A stretch of DNA of 64,000 nucleotides from Gammaproteobacteria bacterium (GTDB taxonomy: Bacteria; Pseudomonadota; Gammaproteobacteria; JAJDYQ01): positions 937,215 through 1,001,214 of the forward strand of contig OZ243932.1 in assembly GCA_965214035.1 (NCBI GenBank), read 5' to 3'. Position numbers and translations under genes: made by a program. Numbering within the stretch: position 1 is the stretch's first letter; each line of letters opens with the position of its first letter. Positions 3,960 through 35,769 of the stretch are shown piece after piece. Below the pieces are notes generated by a model. That model searched no databases and was not told where the DNA came from. It saw nothing but the letters and a program-made list of their open reading frames with translations.

Positions 3960-5444
3960 TCAGGCACAGCGGTTGATGAGAAATTGAATCAACAGAGGCA
4001 CTGGCCGACCGCTGGCACCTTTATCTTTTCCACCACTTTTCCAGGCCGTACCGGCAATATCGATATGTGCCCAGCTAACCCCCTCAGTATAGCGTGAGAG
4101 AAAGCAGGCCGCCGTAATAGAACCCGCGCCGCGGCCGCCTATATTCGCCATATCCGCGAAATGACTGTCAATCTGCTGCTGAAACCTGTCATCCATGGGT
4201 AACTGCCACACCCTGTCCAGGGCATCATCACCGGCGTCAATAACCGCATTGACCAGCTTGTCATCATTGCCCATCACAGCGGAAATATGGTGACCAAGGG
4301 CCACGATCACGGCACCGGTAAGCGTAGCGACATCGATGATCACATCGGGCTTGTATTTTCGCGCATAAGTAAGGGCATCACACAAAATCAACCGGCCTTC
4401 CGCATCAGTATTCAATATCTCGATTGTTTTGCCGGACATCGAAGTGACGACATCACCTGGGCGGGTAGCCTTGCCACCGGGCATATTCTCCGTTGCCGGA
4501 ATGATCCCGACCACATTGATCGGCAATTTCAGGGAAGCCGCCGCCTGTATAGTGCCCAATACCGAACCGGCACCGCACATATCATACTTCATCTCATCCA
4601 TGGCAGCGCCCGGCTTCAATGAAATGCCGCCGGTATCAAAAGTGACACCCTTGCCGACCAGAGCCACAGGTGGCATGGACGGCTTGCCGCCCTGATACTC
4701 CAGCACAATCAACCGGGCCGGTTCAGCGCTGCCGGCGGCCACCGACAACAACGAACCCATGCCCAGCTTCTCCATCCGCGCCTCATTCAACACCCGCACA
4801 TTCAGACTTTCAAACCTGCGACCCAGGGCGCGCGCCTGACCGGCCAGATAAGAAGGCGTAGCGACATTGGCCGGCAGATCACCCAGGCGTCTGGTCAATG
4901 TCATGCCCTCGCCAACCGCCTTACCACGAGACAACACCCTGCGCCCCGCTGCCAAATTCTTTCCGACATAAAACTTTATGGAAATCAATGGATTGGAGGA
5001 TTTTTTGAAAGTACTTTTTAACTCACCTCTGCGATAGGCAGCATTCGACATGGAGCAGGCAGCCTGCTGCAACAGCCAGCCTGAACGACGTCCCTTGACC
5101 CTGATTTCACTCAAAAATATCGCTGCATTTTTACTGCCACCGTGATTGAGCCGACCGAACGCCGTCTCGATCATTTTCACCCAGCAATCGGCATCGCGTT
5201 TATCGTCACTGCCGCATCCGAGCACCAGCACACGGGGACTTTTAATCCCCTCCAGACCATACAGATAAAGCGCCTCCCCGGCGTTACCCTTGATATCGCC
5301 CTGATTGACGGCCTTGCGAATAGCGCCCTTACAGGCCTTATCCAACTGTCTGGCGCTTGCCGTCAGACCGTCGGGGGTAAAGCCGACGACGATACAATCA
5401 GTCGTGGTTTTATGGGGAAGGGTATTGATAGCCTGAAACTTCAT
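3960..5444 (-). CDS. pepA: Leucyl aminopeptidase (M17 family).
   Basis: The product is 494 aa and carries the NTDAEGRL signature. The gene is divergent from lptF. Confidence 0.9.
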   Translation of the reverse strand: MKFQAINTLPHKTTTDCIVVGFTPDGLTASARQLDKACKGAIRKAVNQGDIKGNAGEALYLYGLEGIKSPRVLVLGCGSDDKRDADCWVKMIETAFGRLNHGGSKNAAIFLSEIRVKGRRSGWLLQQAACSMSNAAYRRGELKSTFKKSSNPLISIKFYVGKNLAAGRRVLSRGKAVGEGMTLTRRLGDLPANVATPSYLAGQARALGRRFESLNVRVLNEARMEKLGMGSLLSVAAGSAEPARLIVLEYQGGKPSMPPVALVGKGVTFDTGGISLKPGAAMDEMKYDMCGAGSVLGTIQAAASLKLPINVVGIIPATENMPGGKATRPGDVVTSMSGKTIEILNTDAEGRLILCDALTYARKYKPDVIIDVATLTGAVIVALGHHISAVMGNDDKLVNAVIDAGDDALDRVWQLPMDDRFQQQIDSHFADMANIGGRGAGSITAACFLSRYTEGVSWAHIDIAGTAWKSGGKDKGASGRPVPLLIQFLINRCA

Positions 5445-5537: not shown

Positions 5538-6647
5538 ATGAACCTGTTGCGACTGACAATACTGGATCGCTATCTGCTGAAAGAAATTTTACAGACACTG
5601 GCCGCCATACTGCTGGTACTGATACTGATCATTCTGAGCAACAAAGCAGCCCGTTTCCTGAAGAATGCAGCATCCGGTGAATGGCCGGTAGAGATCATCA
5701 TGCCGATGCTGGGCCTGACGGCTGTCAGCAGTCTGGCGTTGATCATGCCTGTGGCGGTTTTTCTGGCCGTCCTGTCAGTAACCGGGCGGCTGTACAAAGA
5801 CAATGAAATGACCGTGCTCAACAGTTGCGGCGTGAGCACTTACCGGCTATATCGTCCGCTGGCAATACTCGCCATTATTTTAGGGGCAATAATCGGCCCC
5901 ATGTCATTCTACGTCGTACCGATTGCCAAGCAGGCCGCCCAGATACTGCAAACACAAGCCGAGCAGAACTCAGCAATAACCGGAATAGCACCGGGACGCT
6001 TCCACCAGAGCTCAGGTGGTCGGCGCGTCATCTACATTGAACACATCGATGCCGGTCAGGCCGAAAACATCTTTATCCACGAACGGGACAGAGGCCGATT
6101 CAGCCTGATAACAGCACAAACGGCCAGCCAGCAAGGCGAAGCCGGCACCCTGATTGACCTGCAGGACGGCTATCGCTATCAGGGCGGGCAGGAAACAGCC
6201 GGACACAGCGCCATACAATTCAAGCGCCACTGGATACAGGCCGGACAAAACAGCTCCACCCCCCCCGTGCCGGATCACGAAGCGCTTCAAACCCGGCAAC
6301 TGCTCGGTTCAGACAACCCGTACCACCGGGCCGAACTGCACATGCGGACAATAACCACCCTCAGCCCGATGCTGTTCGCCTTTCTGGGTTTGCCACTGGG
6401 GCGGCTGCAACCACGGGAAGGCCGCTATGGAAAAATCATGCTTGGCGTACTCATCTACATCATCTACTTCAAACTGCTTCGAGTCGGGCAGGAGCTCATG
6501 GAACAGGAAACACTGTCGCCATGGCCGGGGCTCTGGTGGGCACCTCTCGGACTGACCCTGTACCTGCTATGGACCCTGCGCTCCGAATCCGAAGTCAGAT
6601 CGACCAGCTACCGTACCAGCAAAGCCCGCACGACAAACAAAAAATGA
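5538..6647 (+). CDS. lptF: LPS export ABC permease LptF.
   Basis: It is a multi-TM permease with the LDRYLLKEIL N-terminus. Its stop overlaps the lptG start (ATGA). The ATG at 5538 is chosen over the TTG at 5499. Confidence 0.8.
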   Translation: MNLLRLTILDRYLLKEILQTLAAILLVLILIILSNKAARFLKNAASGEWPVEIIMPMLGLTAVSSLALIMPVAVFLAVLSVTGRLYKDNEMTVLNSCGVSTYRLYRPLAILAIILGAIIGPMSFYVVPIAKQAAQILQTQAEQNSAITGIAPGRFHQSSGGRRVIYIEHIDAGQAENIFIHERDRGRFSLITAQTASQQGEAGTLIDLQDGYRYQGGQETAGHSAIQFKRHWIQAGQNSSTPPVPDHEALQTRQLLGSDNPYHRAELHMRTITTLSPMLFAFLGLPLGRLQPREGRYGKIMLGVLIYIIYFKLLRVGQELMEQETLSPWPGLWWAPLGLTLYLLWTLRSESEVRSTSYRTSKARTTNKK

Positions 6648-7708
6648 GCATCCTGGACAGACACATCGGCCGCCACATCATAACCGGCTCCATCATGGCC
6701 CTGCTCATGCTGGTTGGCATTGATCTGGTATTCACCTTTGTTGGCGAGGCATCCGACATAGGCGAGGGCGACTACAGCCTGGGCAAATCCCTGCTGTATG
6801 TCATACTGACCGCACCGAGGCGGGCCTACGACTTCATGCCGATGGCCGCCATCACAGGCAGCCTGGTCATGCTTGGCGGACTGGCCGGGCAGAACGAATT
6901 TACCGCCATGCGCAGTGCCGGCGTATCGACCCGACAGATTGCCGGTGCAGTACTGAAGGGTGGGGCAGTGCTGATTGGGATAGTCATCATACTGGGAGAA
7001 GGCATTGCGCCCTATACAGAACCCTGGGCACAGCAAATGCGTACCTTCGCACGCACCCAGAGCACAGCCCTGAAAAGCCAGCATGGTATCTGGATACGCG
7101 ACGCAAACAGCTTTATCAACATAGGTCAGGTGCATCCGGACGGAAAGCTCTACAACCTCGACATCTACCGGCTGGACGACAACTACCGACTGCAACAACA
7201 CACCCGTGCAAAGCGTGCCGAATACAAAGATGGCACCTGGACCCTGTACAACCTGACCCGCACCCGCATGCAACCGCAGCGACTCCAGACCATCACCGAC
7301 CAACAGGCACCATGGGATGTCCTGCTGGAACCCGAACTGATCAAAGTGCTGGCGGTCAAGCCGGAACAACTGCCGATATGGCGGCTGCACACCTACATGG
7401 CCTACCTGCGCACCAACGGCCTCGACACACGGGCCTACGAATTTGCCCTGTGGGGCAAAATCACCGCCCCCTTCGTCATACCGGTCATGCTGATCATAGC
7501 CATACCATTCATATTCAGCCCGTTACGCACCACCGGCTCCGGTCAACGCATTCTGATTGGCATCATACTGGGCATCAGCTACTACCTGCTATCGCACCTT
7601 ATGGTCAGGGCAGGGCAGCTATACGCCCTCAACCCCATACTCAGCAACACACTGCCCATTGCCATCTTCCTGACAGCCGGCTGGCTGGGCTGGCGAACAA
7701 TACGCTAA
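6644..7708 (+). CDS. lptG: LPS export ABC permease LptG.
   Basis: MSILDRHIGRHI... matches the LptG N-terminus. The ATG at 6644 overlaps the lptF stop. Confidence 0.85.
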   Translation: MSILDRHIGRHIITGSIMALLMLVGIDLVFTFVGEASDIGEGDYSLGKSLLYVILTAPRRAYDFMPMAAITGSLVMLGGLAGQNEFTAMRSAGVSTRQIAGAVLKGGAVLIGIVIILGEGIAPYTEPWAQQMRTFARTQSTALKSQHGIWIRDANSFINIGQVHPDGKLYNLDIYRLDDNYRLQQHTRAKRAEYKDGTWTLYNLTRTRMQPQRLQTITDQQAPWDVLLEPELIKVLAVKPEQLPIWRLHTYMAYLRTNGLDTRAYEFALWGKITAPFVIPVMLIIAIPFIFSPLRTTGSGQRILIGIILGISYYLLSHLMVRAGQLYALNPILSNTLPIAIFLTAGWLGWRTIR

Positions 7709-10482
7709 CCCGTATTCCGCATACCGGCGGCGATGGCATTAATAGTACGCAATATCGGTTCAAGCCAGCGCTCACGTCCGGCCTCCGTACTCTCGTTTTT
7801 ATACCGTCGCAGCAACTCGACCTGAATAAAATTCAGCGGGTCCAGATACAGATTGCGGCGCGTCAGCGACAACAGAATATCCGGCGTTTCCGCCATCAGA
7901 CCATCAGTCCCGGCAACAGCGACAACCATGCGCACCGTGCGCAGATACTCAGTCCGGATAGCCAGAAAAACAGCCTCTGCGCGGGCCGGATCACTATCAA
8001 GGCTGGCATAAGCCTGAGCGATATCCATTTCAGCCTTGAACAGCGCCATCTGCGTATTACTCAAAAACGAATGAAAAAACGGCCACTCCTGATACATGCG
8101 GCGACACAACGCCAGCCGCTCCGGGTCATCACCGATCCACTGCTCCAGAGCGGAACCGACGCCAAACCAGGCCGGCAATGTATGCCGCGACTGCGCCCAG
8201 CCAAAGACCCACGGAATAGCGCGCAATGAACCTCTGGAGCGATCCTGTTTTTCACGATGCGAAGGACGGGAGCCGATATTCATCAGGCCGATTTCACTGA
8301 CTGGCGTTGCCTCATAAAAATAATCAACCAGCTCCTGCGAATCCATCAACTCACGATAAACACGCTCACCGACCTGCGCCATCTCCCGGACGGTCGCTCG
8401 GAACACCGCCGGCACCGCCACAACCGGCTGCACCAGGCCGAGGCTTGCCTTAATCAAACCAGTCATACCGACACCCAGCTCAAAGACAGCGGTTTCCGGA
8501 TTATTATACTTATAGAACAACACCTCCCCCTGCTCGGTGAAGCGGGTTTCCCCCTGCACAGACCCTGGCGGATAAGCCAGCAGCGTATCATGCGTAGGTC
8601 CGCCGCCGCGTGCCATCGTGCCACCCCGGCCATGAAACAGGCGAACCCGCACACCATACCGGCCGGCGATTTCAACAATCCGCTCCTGCGCCTCGTACAA
8701 AGACCAGGCCGAGGCAAAAATCCCGCCATCCTTACAGGAATCCGAATAACCCAGCATAACCTCCTGCAAGTTACCGGCCGCCTGCAACAACCGGGTATAG
8801 ACCCGATTCGAAAACAACTGCTCCAGAACCGGCTCGACATGCGCCAGATCATCGATAGTTTCAAACAGCGGTGCAACCAGCATACGACAAAACGGCGCAT
8901 CCGGCCGGCCACCGACCAGCCCACAGACAGAAGCCAGCAACAACACCTCCATCACATGGCTGGCATCACGTGTCATCGAAATCACATAGGCACCAAACGC
9001 CGCCGGGCTGACCTCCTGCTGCAACCGCTCCATAACCGCAAACACCTCCAGAGTCTGTGCGGTATCGGCAGACAAGGCCGAAACATCCACGCCGGCACAC
9101 GCACCGGACTCAAGCCAGCCGGCCAGCAGCGGCAACCGCTGCGGTTCATCCAGCGCCGCATAATCCACCTGCAACTGCTGTCTGACAATCTCGGCAACCG
9201 CCGCCGAATGCCTCGCCGACTCCTGCCGGACATCCAGCTTGACCAGATGAAAGCCAAAAGTTTCCGCCAGCCGGATCAAATCCGACAACTCCGCATCGGC
9301 CGTTGCCTGATCACCATGTGCAACCAGCGAATCACGGATCAAACAAAGATCATCGATAAAATCCTGCGCCTGCACATAACCCCTCGCCGCCGGCAGCGGT
9401 CCGCCATGTACAGGCTGCATGACAGACTGCAAAGTCTGCTCCAGTTGCACCCGCATCAGGGCCAGCTTGCGGCGATAAGGCTCCGACCGGAAGCGATTCG
9501 GATTGCTGGCAAAAGCCTCCGCACTGAGCCGGCCCTGAGTCTCCAGACTATCGAGCAACGCCTGCGACGGCTGACACATACCGTCAGAAAACGTCAGAAT
9601 ATTACCCAGTTGCACCACCCGGCTCCGATACTCACTCAAAATGACCTCGGCGTGCAGACGCACCGCCTTCTCCGTCGTCTCCGGCAATACAAAAGGATTA
9701 CCGTCACGGTCGCCGCCGATCCAGGAACCGAAGCTCAAAAAGGAAGGAATGCGGATACCGTCACCATAAACCCGCGCCGCGGCATCACCCATACGGCGAT
9801 AAAGCAGCGGCACAGCAATAAACAACGATTCACGGAAATAATACAGACCGGTACGGATCTCATCCTCAACAGAAGGCTTGCGCCCTCGCACCTCATCGGT
9901 TTTCCACAAAGTCTGGATTTGCGCCTCCAGTTGGCGATGCAGACAGTGGCGCTGCTCACGGCTGCTGCCGGTGCCACCCAGTTGCTCGGCCGTGACAAAA
10001 ATTCGCCGCATCAACACCATAATGGAACGACGTCGGGCCTCGGTCGGATGAGCGGTAAAGACAGGCCGAAAAGCCAGTTTCCCCAGCAGAGCCTGCACCT
10101 GCGACACACCCAGGCCACGCCGGTGCAATTCACGAAAAGTGGCATCAAACGAACCCGGCCACGACGTTCCGCTGCGGCCGGCCATAGCCCGTTGGCGGTG
10201 CATAAAAGACTCCTCGGCGATATGCAGCAGGCCGAAAAAGACCGTATAGGCCCGGATTACACGCGACAACAAACCCGGCTCAAGCCGGCGGATACGGCGC
10301 ATCAAACGCCGACGCAAGGCCGGATCATCCTTTTTCCGCAGTTTGCTGAAACCACGGCGCAAAGACTGCACCGTCTTCAAAACCTCAGACTCCTCCTGAG
10401 AACTCAATACATGACCGAGCACATCCCCGAACAGCCGCACCCGACTGCGCAATACCTTGTCATACCTCAACTCAATAGCCAT
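7705..10482 (-). CDS. ppc: Phosphoenolpyruvate carboxylase.
   Basis: The product is 925 aa and contains the VFTAHPTE and FHGRGGT motifs plus the C-terminal AGMRNTG. Confidence 0.9.
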   Translation of the reverse strand: MAIELRYDKVLRSRVRLFGDVLGHVLSSQEESEVLKTVQSLRRGFSKLRKKDDPALRRRLMRRIRRLEPGLLSRVIRAYTVFFGLLHIAEESFMHRQRAMAGRSGTSWPGSFDATFRELHRRGLGVSQVQALLGKLAFRPVFTAHPTEARRRSIMVLMRRIFVTAEQLGGTGSSREQRHCLHRQLEAQIQTLWKTDEVRGRKPSVEDEIRTGLYYFRESLFIAVPLLYRRMGDAAARVYGDGIRIPSFLSFGSWIGGDRDGNPFVLPETTEKAVRLHAEVILSEYRSRVVQLGNILTFSDGMCQPSQALLDSLETQGRLSAEAFASNPNRFRSEPYRRKLALMRVQLEQTLQSVMQPVHGGPLPAARGYVQAQDFIDDLCLIRDSLVAHGDQATADAELSDLIRLAETFGFHLVKLDVRQESARHSAAVAEIVRQQLQVDYAALDEPQRLPLLAGWLESGACAGVDVSALSADTAQTLEVFAVMERLQQEVSPAAFGAYVISMTRDASHVMEVLLLASVCGLVGGRPDAPFCRMLVAPLFETIDDLAHVEPVLEQLFSNRVYTRLLQAAGNLQEVMLGYSDSCKDGGIFASAWSLYEAQERIVEIAGRYGVRVRLFHGRGGTMARGGGPTHDTLLAYPPGSVQGETRFTEQGEVLFYKYNNPETAVFELGVGMTGLIKASLGLVQPVVAVPAVFRATVREMAQVGERVYRELMDSQELVDYFYEATPVSEIGLMNIGSRPSHREKQDRSRGSLRAIPWVFGWAQSRHTLPAWFGVGSALEQWIGDDPERLALCRRMYQEWPFFHSFLSNTQMALFKAEMDIAQAYASLDSDPARAEAVFLAIRTEYLRTVRMVVAVAGTDGLMAETPDILLSLTRRNLYLDPLNFIQVELLRRYKNESTEAGRERWLEPILRTINAIAAGMRNTG

Positions 10483-10645
10483 AAAAGCAACCCGTGCGAC
10501 ACCGATCCACCGATAAAACAGCGCATTATAACCGGTAAAATCCCTTCATAAAGGCAGCCGTGACCACAAACCCCGACCCAATACACCATAAATTTCGACA
10601 AAAAATACAATTTATGCTAAAAAAGCTGTTTTTTTGCTGACCGGC

Positions 10646-10654
10646 TGCTATAAT
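10646..10654 (+). promoter_or_regulatory. Candidate extended -10 promoter element (TGcTATAAT) reading toward giant gene copy 1.
   Basis: The sequence TGCTATAAT lies ~340 nt upstream of the ATG at 10992. It is conserved at 26632..26640 upstream of copy 2. Confidence 0.3.
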
Positions 10655-10812
10655 TCAGGAAACAAAGGCCAACTGAACCGCTTGCCAGTGATGGCAGGCT
10701 GATTCAAGATAAGCCCGACCCTGTCGGCGGGCACGGTATCCGGCCCTTGCAACGGATACCACAAACAGTAACCGATAATCGGAAATTGATAAAAACACAC
10801 GACGGAGGATAA

Positions 10813-10923
10813 CATGAAATCTGGACAAAAATGGATTCTGAACAGCAACAAGGGTCATGCCGTGATATGCAAAATCATCACAGTCATAAACAATGCCTTG
10901 CGACCGGCAGGCATCGATATTGA
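10813..10923 (+). CDS. Upstream leader ORF (uORF, 36 aa) preceded by a strong SD (GGAGG-N7-ATG).
   Basis: A GGAGGATAAC-ATG context. Relative to the copy-2 uORF it has one extra C at 10859-10861 and terminates at TGA 10921..10923, before the poly-C tract. Confidence 0.3.
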   Translation, partial: HEIWTKMDSEQQQGSCRDMQNHHSHKQCLATGRHRY

Positions 10924-10940
10924 CCTGTGTAAAAATACAG

Positions 10941-10968
10941 CCCCCCCCCCCCCCCCCCCCCCCCCCCC
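10941..10968 (+). repeat. Homopolymeric tract of 28 C followed by 7 A, 24 nt upstream of the giant-gene start.
   Basis: Counted directly in the sequence. The homologous tract upstream of copy 2 has 19 C. Confidence 0.95.
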
Positions 10969-10990
10969 AAAAAAATGAGAGGGTATATCT

Positions 10991-11016
10991 GATGCCGGCC
11001 GTCGATGCCGGCCGCT
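10991..11016 (+). repeat. 13-bp direct repeat, two units (GATGCCGGCCGTC and GATGCCGGCCGCT), containing the start codon.
   Basis: Direct comparison with copy 2 (26966..26978), which has a single unit. Confidence 0.9.
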
Positions 11017-14000
11017 CTGCGGTGCATTCCTGTCGCGAGGCAGGTGCCTCTGAGCCTCCTGGCCGGCTGACGCGCCGGTCTTTTTCCGACAGTTTCCATT
11101 CTGTGACAGCCCGCACCGCCGGCTGGCTGCGCCGTGCGGCGATGGTGTCATTGCTCGGACTGCCACTGCTGTTCGGGTTGGCGACGCAAGCGGTGGCGCA
11201 GACCGTGCCGACGCTCAAGGTCGAGGGTGATTTCTCTGTCACCGAAGGCGATTCCGGCACCATCACGCTCACCCTGAGCCAGGCGGCGAGCGGCACGATC
11301 ACATTTACCACCGGCAGCTACTTAACTGACTGCGACACACATAATTGTCCCACTGATATCTCTGGAGCGTCCGCATCCGATTTCTCTTCTGGCACGGGCT
11401 CCACGCGGACAATAACTTTCAACATCGGCGATACGACCAAGTCCTTGACCTTCATGACGACCGAAGACAGCGCAATCGAGTCAACAGAGATTTTCTCGAT
11501 TGGGATTGTTGATCTCGCTTCCAGCGAAGCCACCATCGATCCGGGTACACCGGCCGACAGAATTTTCTTTGGAACTTTTATGTCTTGGTGGGTCCGCATC
11601 CTCGATGACGATGCCCCGCCCATGATTTCCATTGCCGGCGGCAGTCCGGCCACCGAGGGAGCCGGCACGCTCACCTACACACTGACGGCGAACAAACCAC
11701 CGGCCACAGATCTGACCATTAATTTAACCGTCTCTGAAGACGAAACCGATGGCCAGAACTTTGTCGCTGCCGGTGACGAAAACAGTCAGGCCGTCACCTT
11801 CCCGGCCGGCACCACCGCGGCCAGCTACACGATTCCGATCACCGACGATGAAGTCGATGAAGCCAGAGGCGAGGTCACGGTGACAATCAATGACGGTACC
11901 GGCTATACCGCCGGCACCGACACGGTTACCATCACGGTGCGCGACGACGACAGAACCATCGTCACCCTGGCCGAAAATCCGGCCGGCGACCTCGATGAAG
12001 GCGCCCGCAAACAGATTACCCTGACCCTGAACCGTCCGCTGGTTTCGGGTGAGACCCAAGTCCTCTCGCTCGAACTTGGCGGCACCGCCACGGTGAATAC
12101 GGACTATACCCTGGCCGGCATACCGGCGGACGGCGTGCGTTACGAGGATCTGGCCTCCGGGAACCCTGGAATCGTATTTACCGGCCAGACTTCCGGCTCT
12201 GCCACGACCGCCACACTGACCGTGACGGCCATCGCAGATGGTATCTCTGACCCCGGCGAGGTCATCACCATGGAGTTTGCAACATCGGAATTAGTAAGCC
12301 CGGACGGCGATGCGGGAATACAGGACGCTCGGGGCGGCGGCCCGGTCAGCGCCACCCGAACGATTGCCTTCAGGATCACCGAACAACCGGCGCTGGTACT
12401 GAATCCATCCATGCTGACCATTGACGAGGGCGATACGGCGACCTACATCGTGTCTCTGGCCACCCAGCCCAATGCGTCAGTGGCCATTACTGTAAGCGGT
12501 CAGGCCGATACCGATCTGACCCTGAGCGGTGATACCCTGAGCGGTGATACCCTCAGCTTCACCATGATGAACTGGAACCAGCCGCAGACCATCACGGTCA
12601 CCGCCGGGTCGGACGACGACGCCCAATCGGATGACCCGATCGCCCTGTTGCACACCGCCACCGGCGGTAACTATGCCGGAGTCACCGGTGAAGTCACGGT
12701 CACCATCACCGAAGACGATACGGCCGGTATCACCGTACAGCCGACCACCCTGGCCGTGGATGAAGGCGGCACCAACAACTACACCGTGGTACTGACCTCG
12801 GCCCCGGCCGGCGAGGTCATCATCGAGGTCCGACCGGGCACGGTCGCCACCGTCGATAATGACATGCTGACCTTTGCCCAGAGTAACTGGAATCAGGCAC
12901 AGACGGTCACCGTGACCGGCATGGATGACGCGGTGTACAACGCCGGCGATGCACGCTCTGGCACTATCACCCACACCATCGGCACCGCTGACGGTGGTGC
13001 CTATACCACCGATCTGGAACTGGACTCTGTCACAGTCACCGTCACGGACGACGATAATCCGACATTGACTGTCAGCTTGCCAAATGGTGAAACAACCATC
13101 GAGGAAGGAAGTGGTTTTACCAGAGTTCGAATAACCGCAGACCCTGAACCGGGGGCGGGGGATAGTTCTCGCCTTATAAATCAAGATCCGTCAAATGATC
13201 TGTCAAATGTTCTATTTTTCAGCCCTGGTTATGGATGGTCTTCTTTCCGTGCACCGGATACCAGTTTCGACCCTGATATCGATTTTGAATTTAATATTGC
13301 TGACAACGATAACGATCAGCCCAATGGTACGCTGACTATCGACGTATCCGTCCTGAGAGGCTTTGCAGCCGGTTCTCCGTCCATGGTCACGCTGACCATC
13401 ATTGACAACGACCCGACCGAGGTCAGCCTGATTCGCACCGGCAGTACGGGCGCTATTGACGAGGGCGGCACCGTCGCCTTCACCGTACAACTCAGCCGTG
13501 CCCTGGTTGCCGGCGAGATTATTGACGTACCGCTGGTCATCGACGGCACCGGCGTCACCCCCGCCGACTGGAGCCTGAGTGCGACCGGTACCGGTGTGGT
13601 TCTGTCCAATGAGAACACAATGACTCCGCTGCTGCGCTTTGAGAATGCCGGCGCACAGACGGCTGAACTGACCTTGACTGCCATCAGCGACAATACGGTG
13701 GAAGGCGGTGGTTCCGAAACTTATGTTATCGACCTGGGTCTGGGCCTAGTCATTTCCCCTGATGAGCTCAATGGCATTGACCAAGGCAGTCTGAACACCA
13801 ATGTGGGCGGTGGTGCCGACCCGCACAGCGGCAGTAACACCTTCAGTGTGCAGGTCGATGATCCGACATTGACTGTCAGCTTGCCAAATGGTGAAACAAC
13901 CATCGAGGAAGGGGGGTCGTCCATTACGGCTCGATTCACTGCGAACCCGCCGGTGGCGCAATCTTTGGGCATCCCCAGTAATTTTAGAACTCTTACCACT

Positions 14001-17000
14001 GGTTATACCTCATTTACCAGCCTTGAAGATGACTCTTTGGTAAGACCAGTGGATATTGGATACTTTATTGATGAAAACAATATGGATCAGCCCAACGGCA
14101 CTCTGACCATCCATGTATCCGATTCACGGTTTGCAGCCGGTTCTCCGTCCATGGTCACGCTGACCATCATTGACAACGACCCGACCGAGGTCAGCCTGAT
14201 TTACACCGGCAGTACGGGCGCTATTGATGAAGGCCAGGCCGTTACCTTCACCGTACAACTCAGCCGTGCCCTGATCGCCGGCGAGATTATTGACGTACCG
14301 CTGGCCATCGACGGCACCGGCGTCACTCCCGCCGACTGGGGCCTGACAGAGCAGGCGGGCATAGCCAATACCGGCGTCAGCCTGCACGACACCGATACGG
14401 CCGTGCCCTTCATCCGCTTCAGCGGCGCCGGTGCCGAGACCGCCCTGCTGCAACTGGCCGCGGCGCTGGACGACACCGATGAAGGTGGTTCCGAGACCTT
14501 TATGATTGCCTTGGGCCAAGACGGCTCAACAACCAACGGCTTTGATCTTCCCGGTCGTGCCACCAATGTCGGCGGCGGTGCCGACCCGGACGGCGACAAC
14601 AATCGCTTTGAGTTAGTCGTCAATGACGAGGGAAGCACCGTGTTGTCCATTGGCATTGACTCGGTAACCGATGCGGAAGGCGATGCCGGTGAGACGACCT
14701 TCAAAACGGTTACGGTCAGCCTGTCGCGGCCCTACAGCCGGGACCTGGTGGTGAATGTGCGTCGTTCCGGCTCAGCCACCCGTGGCACCGACTATGAGCT
14801 GGTCGGTACCGGTGACAACAATGCCCTGATCAACTTTAATCCGGTCAGGAGATTCACCATCACCGCGGGTGCCACCAGCGTCCAGTTCCGTATCCGTGTC
14901 ATCGGCGACACGGTCTTTGATATCGATGAGACGGTGGTACTAACGTTGATCGGTCTGACCACCGGTATTAGCGAGGCCGTCACGGATGTCGTCATTTCTA
15001 ATATCGTCGGTGCGGTCACCCACACGATTGAAAATGACGATCCCGGCGGTAAAGTCACGGTCAGCCGGTCGGCGCTGAGCATGGAAGAAGCCGATGGCGC
15101 GGCCAGCTACACCCTGGTGCTGGACAGTCAGCCGGGCGATGAAATCATCTTGACGGTGGCCGGTGGTGAAGCCGATACAGCCACCGTCAACACAACCGGC
15201 GGCATGGCCGGCATCGAACAGACCCTGACCTTTACCACGATGAACTGGGATCAGGCACAGACCGTGCTGGTGGCTGCGGTCAACGACGATGAAGACAATG
15301 CCGGTGGCAGTCGCAGGCTCACCCTGACCCATACCATTACCACCGGTGACGATGCCGGTTATTCGACCGGTCTGCCGGTGGATGCGGTCGTTGTCACGGT
15401 GGTGGACGATGATAGAACCATCGTCACCCTGGACGAAAATCCGGCCGGCGACCTCGATGAAGGCGCCAGCAAACAGATTACTCTCACACTGAACCGCGGT
15501 CTGGTCAATGGCGAAGAGCTGGTCGTCCCGCTGACCTTCGGCGGTGATGCCACACGGGGCACAGACTACACCCTGATGGAGGTCGCAGCGAATGGCGTGA
15601 GCTATGCCAATCTGACCGGCAGCGACGACCCCGCCGTCACATTCATCGGCCCGTCCTCCGGCACTACCGCCATGACGGCCACCCTGACCCTGAGAGCCAT
15701 TGCCGACAGTACCTCCGACCCCGGCGAGAGCGTCACCATTGTACCGGGTACCTTGACCGACACCTCTCTGGACGGCGGCGGCACGGTCACCGGCAGTCTG
15801 GCTTTTAACATCATTGAACGAGTGGCGCTGATACTGGGTCCCGACCGTTTGATGGTATCGGAAGGTATGCAAACAGCGAGCTACACGATTCGTCTGGCGA
15901 GTGAGCCGACGGCACCGGTGACGGTAGTGGTGACCGGTTATGTCGGCACCGGCCTGACGCTGGATAACGACGAATTGATTTTCACGGCGGCCAACTGGAA
16001 CATTGCCCGGCAGGTAACACTGACCACAGCGGCGATGGACAGCGACTTGGCCGGCAGCACCCTGCAGTTGCGGCACACGGCCTCGGGTGGCAATTACCTC
16101 TCGGTGACCGCCGACCTGAGTGTGACCCTGCTGGATGACACGGCCGGTGTGGTGGTCATGCCCAGTGGTGACAATACCTTGGTCAGCGAGGACGGTGCCC
16201 GCACGGACGATTACACACTGAGGCTGAGCACACAACCGGTCGGTGATGTGGTGGTGCGGGCGACGGCCGGCACCGGCCTGAGTGTGAACGATGCGGCCGC
16301 GGCCGATCTGACCTTTACCGCTACCAACTGGAATCAGGCACAGACGGTGACGATAGCGGGCATTGACGATGACATTGCCAGCGGTGCGCTGCGCACCGTG
16401 TCGGTGACCCATACCATTGTCAACAGTGCAGACAGTGGCTATCCGGAGGACGCCCTGCGCATCGCCAATCTGGACGTCATGCTGATAGACGACGATACCG
16501 CCGGTCTGCTGTTGTCATCATCGGATCTGACGCTGTCGGAAGGCGACACCATCAGCTACACGGTGCGTCTGACCAGCCAGCCGACCGCGGTGGTGTCGGT
16601 GACCATTACCAGCGACAACGAGGATCTGACAGCGGGCAATACCCCCTTGATGTTCAGTACGGACAACTGGTCCATGCCGCAGACGGTGCTCCTGACGGCC
16701 AACGCAGACGATGATTCGGACGACGAGCAGGCGCAACTGACGCACCGCGTGGCGGGGGGTGACTATGGCGCGATCAGCGAGGTCATTTCGGTGCGCATCA
16801 CGGATCGCTCGGCCGGTGTGGATATCACGCAGAGCGGCGGCAATACGATAGTCCGCGAGGATGGCGGCGAGGACAGCTACACACTGGTCCTCAATGCGGC
16901 ACCGCGCGGTGATGTGACCCTCACGGTGACTGCCGCAGCCGGTATAACGGTGGATACGGACAGCCTGACCTTTACAACCGGTAACTGGCAGACACCGCAG

Positions 17001-20000
17001 CCCGTTACGGTGACCGGTGTCAATGACGACCTGGATAATCCCGATGATGGGCGCGAGGTCATGATCCGCCATGCGGTCAGTGGTGCCGGCGACAGTGCCG
17101 GCTATACCCCGGCCCTGTCGATTGCGCCGGTATCGGTGACGGTGCTGGACGACGACACGGCCGGGCTGCGCTTCAGCCGTTCGGTGCTGGCGGTGGTTGA
17201 GGGCGGCAGTACGAGCTACGGTGTGCGTCTGACCAGCCAGCCGACCGCGGTGGTGACCGTGACCATTGCCAGCGACAACGGGGATCTGACAGCGGGCAAT
17301 ACCCCCTTGATGTTCAGTACGGACAACTGGCCCATGCCGCAGACGGTGACGGTAACGGCGGGCACGGACAGCGATATGGACAATAACGATGTCGCCCTCA
17401 GCCACACGGCCACGGGCGGCGGCTATAACTCGGTCAGCGCCACCCTGGGCGCGATGCTGCTGGAAGGCGGTACTGCCAGCGTCAGCATTGTGCAGAGCGA
17501 CGGTCGCACCATCGTCACGGAGGGGGTCAGCACGGATTTCTATGAGGTGGTGTTGAATACGGCACCGGACCGCGATGTGACCGTGAGAGTCAGTGCCGAC
17601 AGTGGTGTGACGGTCAATGGTGCGGCCACACTCGATCTGGTCTTTACCCCGACCAACTGGCATGAGGCGCAGCCGGTCATGGTAGCGGCGGTGGACAACA
17701 ATGCCGATGACGGTGTGCGCACGGCCGATATCAGCCATATCCTGAGTGTTGGGGACAATAATGACTATGACCGGACACTGACCATTGCCGGGGTAACGGT
17801 GACGGTGAACAGAGATCCAGATGATAGCCGTGGGCGGCTGGTGACTTTGAGTGGCGGTGATCAAGAAGGGTCGACGCGGTCTTTCAACTTTGTCTTCGAA
17901 AGTAGCCCAGGGCGAAGTCTGGGTGCTGACGAGGTCATGACGCTGCCGTTGATACCTGGTGGCGACGCGGTGCGCGGTCAGGATTATCAGGTGCGTTGTG
18001 AGCGCAACCCGGCAGGACGCGGATCGCACCCTGCGGTTTCCTGTGTCGAGTCAACAGACGGTCAACTGATGTTCATTCTGGATGGCACACAGATATCTCC
18101 CGGCAGACGAACATTCAGATTCACCCTGCCTTTGGAGGTGGAGTTGCTGGAGGACAATATGGCGGAACCGGTCGAGACCCTGACGCTGCGCCTTGGTGAG
18201 AACGGTCAGGACTTTCGCATCCCAATCATGGATGCGCCATCGACCGTGAGCGTGGAGTTTAACAAGTCAATCTATCGCAACAATGAAAATTTCCACTCCA
18301 TAACTCTGATACTTGAGATCAGTCCGCTACTGGGTCGTGCCATCGACTTGCCGCTGCTGTTTATTGACGGTACCGCACAGGCCGGATCAGACTTTGAACC
18401 GATCAGTTCCACCGTCCTTAATTTTACTTCTGAGGGGCGGGCATTTTTTGCTATCACACTCTTGGATGATCAGATAGCCGAAGGCGACGAGAGATTCACG
18501 GTCGTGATTGATGAAACCCGACTGCCGGACTTTATCACCGTTGGCACCAATGCCGCGGCCACAGTCATCATGACCGATAATGATGAGCGCGGGCTGGTTT
18601 TTGATTCCGATACACTGACTCTGGCGGAGGGTGGCACGGGCAGCTACACGGTGCGTCTGTCCAGCCAGCCGACCGATGAGGTGGCGGTGGTGATCGCCGG
18701 TCAGGCCGGTACCGACCTGATGCTGGACCGGGACATTCTGACCTTTACCACGGCGAACTGGAATCAGGCACAGATGGTGACGGTGATGGCCGAAGATGAC
18801 GACGATGGCGATGCCGATCGCATTGTGCTGGTGCATACGGCCTCCGGCGGTGACTATGGACTGACAGCCCGCGTGCAGGCCGACATCATCGACAGGGAGG
18901 CACCGGAGGTGCGGCTGAACAAGGAGGCCATCACGGTCAGCGAGGGCGGCAGCGGCGACAGCTATACGCTGGTGCTGCACACCGAACCGGCCGGCACCGT
19001 GACGGTGACTCTCGCTCCGGCGGCCGGCATAACGGTGCAGCCGGGTAGCGTGACCTTCACGGTGGATAACTGGAATACGCCGCAGGCGGTCACCGTGACC
19101 GGTGTGAATAGTGATGAGATTGACCGGGGTGATCGCACGGTGACCATTGTTCATACCATCACTGCCACCGATGACGCCGATGACTATCCGGAGGATCTGC
19201 GGATAGACCCGGTGCGTGTGACGATAGAGGAAGACGATGAGGCCGGCGTGATGATTGTCGAGAGCGGTGACCGTACGGCGGTCAGTGAAGACGGTGGCAT
19301 CAGGGATGACTACACGGTGGTGCTGACCTCACAGCCGGCCGCTCGTGTGGTGGTAACCGCCACGGCCGCGGCCGGTGTCAGTGTGGATACCCAGTCTCTG
19401 AGCGGTGTGCAGAACACCCTGACCTTTACCACCCTGAACTGGCAAAGCCCGCAGACGGTGACGGTGACCGGGGTGGATGTAGACACCGTGGATCGCGGGG
19501 ACCTTGATGTGTCGATCACTCATGCCATCACGACCACGGCCGGTGGTTATGTGAAAGAGTTGTCGATTGATTCGGTACCGGTGCAGGTGATTGACAATGA
19601 TGCGGCGAACCGCCTGCTGTTTGAGCTGGTTGATCCGGCAGCCGATGTGCTGGTCACGGAAGGTTCGGAGGTGGCCTACACGATGCAACTGGTGGGTCAG
19701 CCGCTGGCCGATGTCACGGTCGATATCAGCGGCCATGACGGCACGGATGTGACGCCGGCCCCGACCCGCCTGACTTTTACCACGCAGAACTGGAATGCCG
19801 GTCAGACGGTGACCCTGACGGTGGCGGCCGATGACAGCGGCGACGGCGAGCGTGTCACCCTGACGCACCGCGCCTCCGGCGGCGGCTATGATGGCACCGA
19901 GGTGGCACTGGAGGTGGCCATCACCGATAGTGATATATCGGGCGTGAGCATCAGCAAAGATACCCTCGTGGCCATCGAGAATGAGGCCGTTACCGACAGC

Positions 20001-23000
20001 TACACGGTGGTGCTGGACATACCGCCGGCCGGTGATGTCACTATCCAGGGTGAGATTCCAATTCAGGGTGGCACACTGGATATCAGACTGGTTTTCACAA
20101 CTGTCAACTGGAATCAACCGCAGACGGTCAGCATATTTGGAAGCATTTTCCTGGCAGACAACATCGACAATCCTGGTGGTGAACGCACCGCCACGACCAT
20201 CATGCATACGGTCACTTCCACGGACAGTGGCTACGACGGCATTGAGGTTGACGATGTGACCGTCACTGTGACAGATGTCGATCCCACTACGGTAACCCTG
20301 TCGGGTGCGGCGCTGGATGTGGTTGAGGGCACCGAGCGTACCCTCACCGTGTCGCTGGAGCGGGCGCTGGTGGCGGGTGAAGTGCTGCCGGTACCGCTGA
20401 CCTTTGCCGGCACCGCCACCCGCGGCACGGATTACACCCTGGAGGGTGTGCCAGCGACGGGCATTGGCTATGAGAACCTGAACAGCGGCAATGCGCAGGT
20501 GACCTTTACCGGTGGCACCGGTGCGGTCGGTACCGCGACCCTGACATTCAGAGCCACACCGGATGCGGACGATGAAGGCAGTGGTGAGACGGTGACGATT
20601 GGTCTGGGCACCCTGGATGAGAACTCCGGCACCGGTCTGAACGGCGGTGGCACTGGTACCAGCAGTCTGGCACCATTCCGCATTATAGAAAAGCCGATGA
20701 TCAACATTGCGGGCGGTCCGGCGGTGACCGAGGGCGGCAGTGTGACCTTTACCCTGACGGCCAGTGAAGCGCCGCTGTCGGATCTGACCATCAACCTGAT
20801 GGTGACGGATGCCGTGCACAGTGATTTTCTGGCGGCGGCTCGCGGAGGCAGGCAGAGTATCACCTTCGTCGGCGGCACGACCTCGGTCAGCTACGAAATT
20901 CCGACGCTGGCCGATATCGATGACGAAGCCGGCGGCACAGTGATGGTGGCGCTGCTGGACGGTGATGGTTATGTGGCGGGCAGCGCACCATCGGCCACCA
21001 CAATGGTCAATGACGACGATGCCACCACGGTGACACTGGCAGGCACAGACGATGATGTCGGCGAGGGGGCACGCAAGGAGCTGACCGTGACGTTGAGTCG
21101 GGGTCTGGTGGCGGGTGAGGTACTGCCGGTTGCGCTGTCTTTTGCCGGCACGGCAACCCGCGGTACGGACTACACCCTGATGGAGACGGTAGCGAATGGC
21201 GTGAGCTATGCCAATCTCAATGGTGGTGGCAGTGCAACGGTGACCTTTACCGGCCCGGCGGCGGGTGTCGGCGTCACCGAGGCCCGACTAAGTCTGAGGG
21301 CTGAGTTGGATGGAACAACCGAGGGCCTCGAGACTGTCATCATCGGCCTGGGCACGCTGGATGCGGATTCCGGTACGAATCTGGGCGGTGGTGCGACCGG
21401 TGTGGATGAACTGGGTGATTTCCAGATTCAGGAAACCCCGGAGATAGTGCTGGAGCGCAATAGCCTGATGCTGACCGAGCAAGGCAGTGCGACCTATACG
21501 GTCGGCCTGTCTGTATCACCGACGGCCGATGTGACGGTCAGGATCACCGGTCAGGTTGACACGGATCTGCAGGTGGATGCCGACACGCTGATCTTCTCTC
21601 AAACCAACTGGAGCACGGCGCGCACCGTGACGCTGATGGCGGTATCGGATACCGACAGCGAGGACGAGGCACCGGTGATGCTGAGGCATACGGCTACCGG
21701 TGGCAATTATGGTTTGGCGATAATGCGGACGGTAACGGTATCGATTGCGGACAACACACCGGGTCTGGTGCTGTCAACGGGCAGCCTGGATATGGAAGAG
21801 AATGAGGCCGAGAGCTATACAATCCGGCTGGCGATTCGTCCGATGGCGGATGTGACGGTGAGTGTATCTTCCGGGGATGCGCCCCGCCTGCGGGTGACCG
21901 GCGGTGACAGCCTGACCTTTACGCCGACCAACTGGAATCGGGCGCAAAGTGTGACGGTGATGGCTGAGGATGACGACGACAGCGACGCCAACCAGGTGAC
22001 GCTGACCCACACGGCGGATGCCGGCTACGGTTCGGTGACAGGAGATATCACGGTGGATATTGCCGATGACGACATACCGCGTGTGGTGCTCGGTGTTGAT
22101 GAATTGACTGTAATCGAAGGCGGCAGTGCGAGCTACACGGTAGAGCTGGGTACCCGTCCATCGGGCAATGTGACGATCGCACTGAGCGGTCAGGGCAGCA
22201 CTTTGAGGCCGGACAGGTCCGAGCTGACTTTTGATGCGGGCAACTGGGGTCAGGCGCAGACCATCACGCTGACGGCGGTCATGGACAGTAATACGACCCA
22301 TGATCAGGTGACGCTGATCCACACCGCCAGTGGCTATAGTGCGGCCCCGGCCGATCTGCCGGTGACCATCACGGACAGCACGCCGCAGTTGAGCTTCTCG
22401 CAGACCACATTCAATCTGGACGAAGGTGACAGCACGACCTACACGCTGGAGCTGTCAGCCGAGCCGGTCGGCACGGTGACGGTCACGCTGAGCGGTCACG
22501 AACGCACTGAACTGACGCCGGAACCGACCGAACTCACTTTTACACAGGACAACTGGAGTGAAGCCCAGGCCATCACCCTGACGGCCGGCACGGACAGCAA
22601 CAGTGTGGATGAGACCATCACGCTGACCCATAGCGCGGATGCCGGCTACGGTGCGGTGACGGAAGAGGTGACGGTCACGGTCCGGGATGCGGATACACCG
22701 CGCCTGATACTGAATACCGATGAATTGATCGAAGGCGGCAGTGCCACCTATAGAGTGACCGAGCAGGGCAGTGCGACCTACACGGTGCGGCTGGGCACGC
22801 AGCCTCGGGTGGATGTGACGGTCACGTTGACCGGGCATGAGGGCAGTGATCTGGTACCGACCCCGGCCCGTCTGGTGTTTGGTCGGGACAACTGGAACCG
22901 TGCGCAGCAGGTGACGCTGACGGCACGCGATGACGATGACAGCGTGAATGACGCGGTGACACTGTCTCACCGGGCCAGTGGCGGGGCTTATGCGGGTGTG

Positions 23001-24842: not shown

Positions 24843-24850
24843 GAAGTCCG

Positions 24851-24927
24851 TAGCCGGCTCTTCTCTCTGCCGGCTGTTGCGGGGCCGGATTCCATCCACA
24901 TTGTCACCGGCTTCGCTTTTTTATGGC
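24851..24927 (+). terminator. Stem-loops plus a T6 run downstream of giant gene copy 1 (candidate intrinsic terminator).
   Basis: The hairpin AGCCGGC-N10-GCCGGCT is followed by GCGGGGCCGG...CCGGCTTCGC-TTTTTT. The copy-2 homolog is a perfect 10-bp stem. Confidence 0.4.
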
Positions 24928-25014
24928 TCCAACCGTCCATGCCTGACACGCTCAGGCATAGGCGGCAGGCTGTCCAGATTGCCCGACTGGCTCAGAGATA
25001 TATTGCCTCGTGAA

Positions 25015-25252
25015 TCAGGCTGATATTACGACGCAAAAGGAATTTCTCAGGTTGTGGTTGGCTTCGCATAACTTATCCAGTAGTTCAGGGGTCGATATTT
25101 CACATACTGTCGCCGTCTCTAATGCCATAACGGTGGAATTGGGACATATACTCCCAGCCCATCCAGACCCATAATCTCGCCGGGCAGGTAAAAGCCGGTT
25201 ATCTGCTCCCGGCCCTGCTCGTTAATGATGAATGTTTTATAAGAACCTGAGC
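25015..25252 (-). pseudogene. Decayed FNR/CRP-family regulator remnant (internal frameshift, both ends lost).
   Basis: The translated pieces are FIINEQGREQITGFYLPGEIMGLDGLG and ALETATVCEISTPELLDKLCEANHNLRNSF. They match the E. coli FNR segments [24 protein letters not shown] and [29 protein letters not shown]. Confidence 0.5.
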
Positions 25253-25311
25253 TGACAGCGAAAATCCTTCATGATGCTGCTTTCTGCATTAGGATAGCCA
25301 TATCCGTTTGA

Positions 25312-26100
25312 ATGGTTATCCAGAACATGGTTTTGCCTCCAAAACGACAGGGCCGCTCGCTTTCCGAATGGTTTCAGACAACAGCAGGAGCAGACTTACT
25401 GGAAAAGGAAAATACCCTGTTGAAGAAAGTCCTGCCGGAGCTGTTTGGCTATCATCTACTGTGGACCGGGGAAGGGAATTATTGGTCGGGTGTTGCAGCT
25501 TCATCGGTCGCACACCATGTCCGCCTGCAGGCACCGGATAAATCCGCTGCCAAAGATTGTGATGTCATCGGCAGCCATACCAGCCTGCCTGTTCAGCGGG
25601 ACAGCATTGATGTTGTCATTCTGCCGCATCTTCTGGAGTATGACCGACACCCACATGCGATCCTGAGAGAGGCCGAACGTGTACTCCATCCAAACGGCCA
25701 TATCATCATTCTGGGATTTAATCCGGTCGGCTATCATGGGTTCTGCCGGGTATTATCCGGATTCCGGGGTAATATGCCGTGGCAGGGACATTTTTATCAT
25801 CCCTTGCGCATCCGAGACTGGCTTAAATTGCTTGGTTTTGTTGTTAAGTCAGTAAGTTACACTGCTTTTTTACCGTCAATTCGATATGGAAAAATGGCCC
25901 GATGCAGCAGATTTATTGAAAAGGCGGGGCAGGGGATGCTTGCGCCGTTGAGTGGTGTGTATATGATCACCGCTCGTAATTTGATCGTTGCCTCCAATGT
26001 GATCAAGCCTGGGCGGAGCAGGAAAAAGGCGGTTCTTGATGGGGTGGTAGAACCGACAACCCGCATCTGTTTGCCGAATAAGCGGCTCCGGGAAGTATGA
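25312..26100 (+). CDS. Class I SAM-dependent methyltransferase, YafS-like (duplicate copy).
   Basis: The product is 262 aa and carries the MTase motif [11 protein letters not shown]...[13 protein letters not shown]. It is 98-99 percent identical to 35770..36558. Confidence 0.7.
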   Translation: MVIQNMVLPPKRQGRSLSEWFQTTAGADLLEKENTLLKKVLPELFGYHLLWTGEGNYWSGVAASSVAHHVRLQAPDKSAAKDCDVIGSHTSLPVQRDSIDVVILPHLLEYDRHPHAILREAERVLHPNGHIIILGFNPVGYHGFCRVLSGFRGNMPWQGHFYHPLRIRDWLKLLGFVVKSVSYTAFLPSIRYGKMARCSRFIEKAGQGMLAPLSGVYMITARNLIVASNVIKPGRSRKKAVLDGVVEPTTRICLPNKRLREV

Positions 26101-26146
26101 GCAAAGTAGAAATTTTTGTCGATGGTGCCTGTCGCGGTAATCCCGG
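26097..26146 (+). pseudogene. rnhA: 5' stub of rnhA (the first ~17 codons, [17 protein letters not shown]), cut off at the duplication junction.
   Basis: The stub is identical to the start of the intact rnhA at 36555. It then runs into antisense ppc sequence. Confidence 0.75.
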
Positions 26147-26470
26147 CCACGACGCTCCGCTGCGGCCGGCCATAGCTCGTTGGCGGTGCATAAAAGACTC
26201 CTCGGCGATATGCAGCAGGCCGAAAAAGACCGTATAGGCCCGGATTACACGCGACAACAAACCCGGCTCAAGCCGGCGGATACGGCGCATCAAACGCCGA
26301 CGCAAGGCCGGATCATCTTTTTTCCGCAGTTTGCTGAAACCGCGGCGCAAAGACTGCACCGTCTTCAAAACCTCAGACTCCTCCTGAGAACTCAATACAT
26401 GACCGAGCACATCCCCGAACAGTCGCACCCGACTGCGCAATACCTTGTCATACCTCAACTCAATAGCCAT
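26147..26470 (-). pseudogene. ppc: Duplicated 5' fragment of ppc (first 108 codons). In the ORF track it is part of the chimeric ORF 26003..26569.
   Basis: ~98 percent nt identity to 10159..10482. The fragment retains the ppc promoter region. Confidence 0.8.
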
Positions 26471-26801
26471 AAAAGCAACCCGTGCGACACCGATCCACCG
26501 ATAAAACAGCGCATTATAACCGGCAAAATCCCTCCATAAAGGCAGCCGTGACCACAAACCCCGACCCAATACACCATAAATTTCGACAAAAAATACAATT
26601 TATGCTAAAAAAGGCTGTTTTTTGCTGACCGGCTGCTATAATTCAGGAAACAAAGGCCAACTGAACCGCTTGCCAGTGATGGCAGGCTGATTCAAGATAA
26701 GCCCAACCCTGTCAGCAGGCACGGTATCCGGCCCTTGCAACGGATACCACAAACAGTAACCGATAATTGGAAATTGATGAAAACACGCGACGGAGAATAA
26801 C

Positions 26802-35368: not shown

Positions 35369-35376
35369 GAAGTCCG

Positions 35377-35446: not shown

Positions 35447-35474
35447 TGGCTCCAACCGTCCATGCCTGACACGC

Positions 35475-35712: not shown

Positions 35713-35769
35713 ACAGCGAAAATCCTTCATGATGCTGCTTTCTGCATTATGATAGCAATATCCGTTTGA

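Follow-up and report, generated by a model that had tools for sequence, protein, structure and literature searches.

Can a change in the copy number of a short repeat at a start codon switch a giant surface protein on and off? The window analyzed here – a 64,000-nucleotide stretch of the gammaproteobacterial contig OZ243932.1 – encodes two related giant proteins, the first from a gene that begins with a pair of 13-bp direct repeats (copy 1) and the second from a gene preceded by a single 13-bp unit (copy 2). The original prediction held that gain or loss of one unit, by slippage or recombination, would toggle translation of the giant protein – a second phase switch that acts independently of a nearby poly-C tract. 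Is the 13-bp difference such a switch, or is it a deletion of a more ordinary kind? Coordinates of the features discussed below are collected in Table 1.

Table 1. Features of the two start regions and repeat tracts of homologous loci. Homologous tracts lie directly 5' of the conserved leader; their positions refer to the respective locus and include the -10-like element.
Feature	Position	Strand	Remark
13-bp unit 1, GATGCCGGCCGTC	10991-11003	+	holds start codon ATG 10992-10994
13-bp unit 2, GATGCCGGCCGCT	11004-11016	+	own ATG at 11005 out of frame
Single 13-bp unit, copy 2	26966-26978	+	ATG 26967 out of frame with giant ORF
Shine-Dalgarno-like GAGAGGG	10977-10983	+	8 nt 5' of ATG 10992; anti-SD duplex -6.7 kcal/mol
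Shine-Dalgarno-like GGGAGGG	26952-26958	+	5' of ATG 26967; duplex -10.7 kcal/mol
Out-of-frame 21-codon peptide MPAALRCIPVARQVPLSLLAG, product of one-unit state	26967-27032	+	ends at TGA 27030-27032
Giant gene 1, 4616-aa type Va autotransporter, Calx-beta/fn3-like passenger	10992-24842	+	PF03797 beta-domain ~23706-24317
Giant gene 2, 2794-codon open frame, copy 1 leader frame	26984-35368	+	PF03797 C-terminal; no SD-equipped in-frame start
Leader, 50-aa Arg/Ser-rich N-terminal extension (MPAVDAGRSAVHSCREAGASEPPGRLTRRSFSDSFHSVTARTAGWLRRAA)	10992-11141	+
Signal-peptide-like hydrophobic core and A-x-A site (MVSLLGLPLLFGLATQAVA/Q)	11142-11201	+	by reading
Native signal peptide of gene 2 (RRSWRDLLSALLCLSLLLVLAAGEAQA/Q)	27494-27577	+	by reading
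Copy of the copy 1 cassette 10154-11135	26142-27097	+	95.5% identical
REP/MITE-like insertion (~285 bp) in native leader of copy 2, relative to L098	27204-27488	+	open in ORF frame
Poly-C tract C28, then A7 (10969-10975)	10941-10968	+
Poly-C tract C19, then A3	26929-26947	+
Upstream ORF MKSGQKW...; SD GGAGGA 10804-10809	10814-10978	+	runs into poly-C, stops at TGA 10976-10978
Upstream ORF, copy 2 counterpart, ATG 26802	26802-27032	+	in frame through C19 with ATG 26967
L082 tract, TCGCCGG x11.6	464-551
L083 tract, GCCGGATC x7.2	9766-9831
L098 tract, TTACCGGC x12.2	6043-6147
L100 tract, AGCCG x6	4099-4136
L101 tract, CGCCGGGT x17.5
L099 tract, C15 + (CA)7

Two giant autotransporter genes within a tandem duplication

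Both giant proteins carry the C-terminal 12-strand beta-barrel translocator domain of type Va autotransporters (for PF03797, with a cut-off of 26, 56.7 bits in protein 1 and 54.7 bits in protein 2; for TIGR01414, with a cut-off of 16, 22.6 and 29.3 bits), which together with their Calx-beta/fn3-like passengers assigns them to this class. In protein 1 a 50-aa extension stands ahead of the signal-peptide-like segment (a hydrophobic core and an A-x-A site, read by eye), and the first five codons of this leader (M-P-A-V-D) are encoded by the 13-bp pair. Comparison of the two beta-barrels gave an omega of 0.22-0.26 at a dS of about 0.25, implying that both genes have been under protein-level selection through most of their divergence. 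The gene 2 ORF is still intact (2794 codons) and is open even across a 285-bp insertion. A third autotransporter is encoded elsewhere in the window (816-aa ORF, 16-2466; PF03797, E = 3e-10).

The two genes are part of a tandem segmental duplication of 16 + 10 kb (10154-26141 and 26142-36604). Its upstream segments, 10154-11135 and 26142-27097, take in the first ~330 bp of ppc (PEP carboxylase; 7705-10482, minus strand, divergently transcribed), and its downstream segments, 25015-26146 and 35475-36604, are 98.7% identical and hold a 262-aa methyltransferase. The giant gene bodies are 73-90% identical, with a patchy distribution, and dS is 0.11-0.45 within them versus 0.005 in the methyltransferase flank – indicating recent homogenization of the flanks. 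Such mosaic identity is typical of gene conversion or cassette exchange. The methyltransferases belong to class I of the SAM-dependent enzymes and are near-identical (dS 0.005), with one gene after each giant gene (25312-26100 and 35770-36558). Downstream of the duplication, 38176-44195 encodes a two-gene helicase-nuclease pair that resembles AddAB (PD-(D/E)XK nuclease and UvrD-type helicase).

The start region of gene 2 is composite. Its copy of the upstream cassette consists, in order, of a 5' ppc fragment (about 26142-26470), intergenic DNA, poly-C, an SD-ATG and a leader, and meets the native leader of gene 2 at 27097/27098. This native leader is homologous to that of L098, a related locus in which it follows GGTATAAT + (TTACCGGC)x12. 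Judged from this alignment, the 5' end of copy 2 is a rearranged hybrid. The insertion in the native leader has the features of a REP/MITE element – 38-nt inverted arms (27365-27402 and 27429-27466) and two ATTCCCGC...GCGGGAAT palindromes – and it has a length that is a multiple of three with no stop in the ORF frame. This openness hints at continued selection, once the insertion was in place, for read-through from a start further upstream.

The 13-bp pair is a genuine local duplication

The copy 1 pair reads ctGATGCCGGCCGTC-GATGCCGGCCGCTctg, the first unit beginning 1 nt 5' of ATG 10992, and its units are identical at 11 of 13 positions, with the final two bases differing. The shared 11-mer GATGCCGGCCG is confined to three sites in the window (both copy 1 units and the copy 2 unit), whereas shuffles lead one to expect 0.08. 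Tandem matches that are exact over 11 nt or more, with an offset of 11-15, likewise number three in the window, compared with 0.025 in Markov simulations. These excesses establish the pair as a genuine local duplication and led us to reject a chance match as its origin. The pair receives no score from TRF at a threshold of at least 30.

Alignment of the two upstream copies isolates the difference between them. Over ~1 kb they are ~9 substitutions apart and show three substantial length differences, all of which fall within repeats: the 13-bp gap, the poly-C tract (28 versus 19) and the poly-A run (7 versus 3). The only further length difference is a one-base offset beside a T-run near 10625. 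Two units in copy 1 and one in copy 2, as originally described, were thus recovered both by reading the sequence and by aligning the copies, and the indel is exactly one unit. The poly-C tracts are the only long repeat tracts in the window, and their length difference of 9 keeps the frame.

One unit separates an open from a closed reading frame

ATG 10992 is in frame with an ORF that ends at 24842 and encodes 4616 aa, whereas ATG 26967 is out of frame with its giant ORF. Both observations had been part of the original prediction, including the stop at 27032, and both were reproduced by ORF reading and by in silico edits. With its two units copy 1 yields 4616 aa, but with one unit only 21 aa and with three only 24 aa; copy 2 yields 21 aa as it stands and a 2804-aa ORF once one unit is added. 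The predicted frameshift of copy 2 is therefore real – the 13-bp indel uncouples the sole SD-equipped start of copy 2 from the giant ORF, and a single added unit reconnects them.

Ribosome-binding potential argues for the same start codons in both copies. Against a background median of -2.4 kcal/mol, the anti-SD duplex energy of ATG 26967 lies beyond the 1st percentile of the background, while the in-frame start candidates near the signal peptides, ATG 11142 and TTG 27512, reach -1.5 kcal/mol. None of the eight in-frame ATG, GTG and TTG codons of copy 2 has an SD comparable to that of ATG 26967: GTG 26984, GTG 27065, TTG 27512 and TTG 27524 range from 0.4 to -1.7 kcal/mol, and the best candidate, GTG 27395 (-5.6 kcal/mol), falls within the MITE, ~40 codons 5' of the signal peptide. 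A start at TTG 27512, which had been named, together with normal expression and an unvarying unit number, as what would reduce the difference to a simple indel, found no support; its SD energy is near background and it would leave the signal peptide without its charged n-region (RRSWRD), so that we consider it unlikely. ATG 10992 and ATG 26967 are thus presumably the start codons actually used, and gene 2 is presumably silent at the level of translation.

RNA folds of the start region with two units or with one, and of a hairpin in the leader, did not differ from shuffled controls (z -0.84 to 0.04), and a structure-based role for the 13-bp units was rejected on these energies. The hairpin is terminator-like (GGCCGGC-TGACGC-GCCGGTC followed by TTTTT; 11061-11080, in copy 2 27023-27042) and sits within the part of the leader that is translated; its loop contains the TGA at which the one-unit frame stops.

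A short upstream ORF precedes each leader, with SD energies of -9.5 (ATG 10814) and -6.6 kcal/mol (ATG 26802). Because the poly-A run is A7 in copy 1 and A3 in copy 2, this ORF and the leader ATG are in different frames in the former and share one frame in the latter. In silico, shortening the tract to C27 or the run to A6 would join the ORF to gene 1, and in copy 2 a second unit would let it run on into gene 2 (2859 aa). In L102 and L103, two loci with a ppc that is 95% identical to that of the window, the contigs end or diverge short of the poly-C region. The ppc-proximal intergenic region (window 10483-10829) is about 90% conserved there only up to ATGAAATCTG(A/G)ACAAA, beyond which both loci carry REP elements and L102 then enters a different gene. 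This divergence indicates that the upstream ORF is not a conserved gene and that the giant-gene cassette is specific to the window's genome at this site. An Rfam search of 10400-11300 returned no match.

Homologous leaders carry repeat tracts at the same position

Searching proteins with the N-terminus identified homologs that have a common leader in front of a signal-peptide-like segment. The frame of this leader is open in every locus examined and runs on into the giant ORF, and the other frames contain stops. The 174-nt leaders of L082, L083, L100 and L101 align without gaps, with mismatches most frequent at codon position 3, followed by positions 1 and 2 (e.g., 16/11/27 and 17/13/27 at positions 1/2/3) – a pattern indicating that the leader is translated.

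Directly 5' of this leader the homologs carry repeat tracts with units of 5, 7 and 8 bp in 6-17.5 copies, and no unit length is a multiple of three. The 13-bp pair occupies the homologous place, about 10 nt 5' of a shared ATTCCTG motif. An ATG 5' of the tract reads through it in frame in L082, L098 and L100. In L083, ATG 9772 just 5' of the tract and the leader are in different frames, and adding one unit or removing two in silico opens an ORF of 487 or 479 aa; by its sequence, L083 is a textbook OFF state. Given these tracts and the OFF frame of L083, the giant-autotransporter gene family looks like a set of contingency loci. The comparison of homologous loci proposed with the original prediction thus uncovered true tracts with units that are not multiples of three at the same position, but no variation in the number of 13-bp units beyond one versus two.

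The single unit of copy 2 is the derived state

Two additional leader copies bear on the direction of the change. The two-unit sequence of L081, from an ENA long-read metagenome, is identical to that of copy 1. The protein P0026 reads ...NGKVYLMLAIDAGRSAVHS, which corresponds to the frame with two units, the first of which differs by two amino acids (MLAIDAGRS, where the conserved two-unit coding state reads MPAVDAGRS...). P0026 is encoded on a 2,513,604-bp contig with a ppc that matches that of the window at 100% identity, and it therefore represents a third leader copy in the same genome. Unit number differs between the paralogs (one versus two) and is two in both L081 and P0026, so that of the four copies known for this type of leader three have two units, and in one of these three the first unit has diverged. 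L081 has AAATGGGAGGG in common with copy 2, and two units and GGCCGG in common with copy 1; by parsimony, the single unit of copy 2 is derived. Within the reach of such comparisons, this shows that two units are the intact, ancestral state and that copy 2 carries a derived deletion.

The deletion would also be young. The flanks are only about 1-2% different, which points to a recent event, and the fact that the insertion in the native leader kept the gene 2 frame open suggests that the 13-bp loss was the latest event at this locus.

Leader copies with three units were absent from the homologs found by the protein search, and a JGI metagenome scan for TATATCTGATGCCGGCCG returned 14 matches, all with unrelated flanks and hence due to chance, and no variants. 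In a genome-collection scan with ppc, no species representative exceeded 69% identity, and when both giant proteins were compared by tblastn with the loci retrieved, neither matched. Two repeats of a long motif are classed as proto-mutable to mutable, with 1e-9 to 1e-5 changes per division (PMC4235727, Table 1). By the same classes (PMC4235727, Table 1), the 13-bp pair – two units, 11/13 identical, TRF below 30 – falls outside the hypermutable range, although it does share with contingency loci a location in the translated 5' region and a unit length that is not a multiple of three. The rate of the deletion was probably low.

What, then, remains of slippage or recombination as the source of the change? 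An indel of exactly one unit agrees with it, but a lone unit offers slippage no repeat from which to return to two. Reversion from one unit to two would need recombination with a paralogous leader, which the conversion of the flanks makes possible.

A silencing deletion is the favored explanation

We consider it somewhat probable that the difference arose when one of two direct repeats was deleted, a derived event of low frequency that silenced the SD-coupled start of a rearranged paralog. On this account the two units of gene 1 would form the start of its translated leader, the 50-aa extension before the signal peptide. Copy 2 would have lost one unit through deletion between the 11-bp direct repeats, via replication slippage or microhomology, leaving its sole SD-coupled ATG out of frame, so that ribosomes would make a 21-aa peptide and gene 2 would be silent. 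The event would be an ordinary frameshift of low frequency, in a paralog that already had a recombinant hybrid 5' end, and it could be repaired solely through gene conversion with another leader copy of the genome, not by slippage.

Three considerations speak against so plain a reading. Selection for frame switching at the leader site is plausible, because relatives carry hypermutable tracts with unit lengths that are not multiples of three at exactly this site and one of them is OFF by one unit. In addition, a long-dead gene would not be expected to keep a 2794-codon ORF open, and the three substantial indels that separate the upstream copies are all in repeats. The alternative is a true contingency switch, in which unit number would change at an appreciable rate and turn each giant autotransporter ON or OFF independently of the poly-C tract, with the change from two units to one arising by slippage and the change from one to two by conversion among at least three leader cassettes. 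The tracts of the relatives (5-, 7- and 8-bp units in 6 to 17.5 copies; C15+(CA)7), the OFF state of L083, repairable by +1 or -2 units, and the intact gene 2 ORF favor this possibility. So do the shared frame of the copy 2 upstream ORF, poly-C and ATG 26967, which leaves the 13-bp unit as the only frame-breaking difference, and the homogenized flanks, which indicate that conversion between copies does occur. Yet the tract consists of merely two imperfect units, it is fixed at two in three of four copies, the protein search found no three-unit copy and the metagenome scan no variants, and the change from MPAVD to MLAID in P0026 indicates that the repeat is not maintained. We therefore regard a contingency switch as rather unlikely, and the idea that unit number toggles as a second phase switch is not supported, given the prevalence of two units, the derived nature of the one-unit state and the presence of only two imperfect units.

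The units could alternatively lie in untranslated, promoter-proximal DNA. TATATC (10984-10989), which is homologous to GGTATAAT, would then act as a -10 element, with transcription from within or after the units and translation further downstream; the indel would alter only the length of the 5' UTR, with little or a graded effect, as in hmw1A/hmw2A. Consistent with this, the perfect -10-like GGTATAAT (in the window, GGGTATATC) abuts the tract in L082 (464-471), L083 (9766-9773) and L098 (6043-6050), as does TACAAT in L100 (region 4099-4136), the called ATG of L101 lies 3' of its tract, and the homology of L081 to the window begins only at the SD, so that the two share no upstream promoter. However, TATATC has no -35 element at 16-18 nt, and sigma-70 promoter scans called nothing at the TATATC or TATAAT sites. 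In the homologs TTGACA lies 20-29 nt 5' of the -10-like hexamer (L082, L083, L100) or about 100 nt 5' of it (L098) – too far for a standard sigma-70 spacer – and the window's units lie 3' of its only -10-like hexamer rather than between a -35 and a -10. The leader frame is moreover open and evolves like coding sequence, a strong SD and ATG lie directly upstream, no SD-equipped in-frame start exists near either signal peptide, and none of the repeat units is a multiple of three. Together these points make a promoter-proximal role improbable.

A false 13-bp difference, produced by mis-polishing of one of two near-identical ~1-kb upstream copies with long, error-prone homopolymers, is very improbable – related long-read contigs such as L098 do contain frame-breaking errors, but a clean 13-bp indel is atypical of homopolymer error, differences at about 9 other positions make reads from the two copies separable, and the independent assembly L081 confirms the two-unit sequence.

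Relationship to known phase-variable systems

Translational phase variation through repeat tracts is known from NalP/AutA of Neisseria, Lav of H. influenzae and Opa (CTCTT in the signal-peptide coding region). As in these proteins, a secreted surface protein has in its leader, right behind the start codon, a repeat with a unit length that is not a multiple of three, unit number sets the frame, and homologs of the window leader carry 5-8-bp tracts in 6-17 copies there. Unlike in these systems, the window tract has two imperfect 13-bp units, far under the hypermutable range, and only one versus two units were seen. Such phase variation of autotransporters and outer-membrane adhesins is described as a class in PMC4235727 and PMC11868660.

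As in the pneumococcal type 3 capsule gene cap3A, an ORF of the window goes in or out of frame when a short direct duplication, of a length that is not a multiple of three, gains or loses one copy. Waite et al. (in 2001) reportedly found that cap3A varies by spontaneous tandem duplication and precise excision within the ORF. The polarity is reversed, however: in the window ON goes with the duplication and OFF with the single unit, and the OFF state therefore contains no repeat to drive reversion.

In H. influenzae, 7-bp repeats upstream of hmw1A and hmw2A give graded expression. The heptamer and octamer tracts of L082, L083 and L098 are similarly placed directly 3' of a -10-like hexamer and before giant type V adhesins, but unlike these transcriptional repeats, the leader of the window family behaves as coding sequence and its units avoid multiples of three. 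A long N-terminal extension before a classical signal peptide in a very large autotransporter is also reminiscent of the ESPR (PF13018) of large type V secreted proteins. The window extension differs in being rich in Arg, Ser and Pro and in lacking the first hydrophobic segment, and PF13018 was not detected when the two giant proteins were scanned with Pfam at E<=0.001.

Implications for the autotransporter family

Most experimentally characterized contingency loci come from host-adapted pathogens. The giant autotransporter family described here shows a contingency-locus design in uncultured environmental Gammaproteobacteria known from metagenomes. Within the window, gene 1 is the only copy with an SD-coupled in-frame start and hence the only one expected to be translated. 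The 13-bp pair is at most a proto-repeat, and its change most likely a one-off silencing deletion; treating the difference as a probable simple deletion avoids over-counting a second switch. Likelier sources of variation are the poly-C tract and recombination between leader cassettes.

More interesting than the 13-bp difference itself is the repeat hot spot at the level of the family. We tentatively suggest, as a possibility that we do not favor, that the conserved leader of these giant Calx-beta autotransporters is a dedicated hypermutable module with cassette exchange, the 13-bp pair being its youngest, proto-repeat form. Repeats with units that are not multiples of three (1, 2, 5, 7, 8 and 13 bp) may have arisen independently in lineages and paralogs at a single fixed site that directly follows a conserved GGTATA(A/T)-type element and the start codon, and leader cassettes may be swapped between paralogs by gene conversion. 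If so, the window would represent a two-layer frame lock – poly-C and 13-bp unit – with one gene expressed and one archived.
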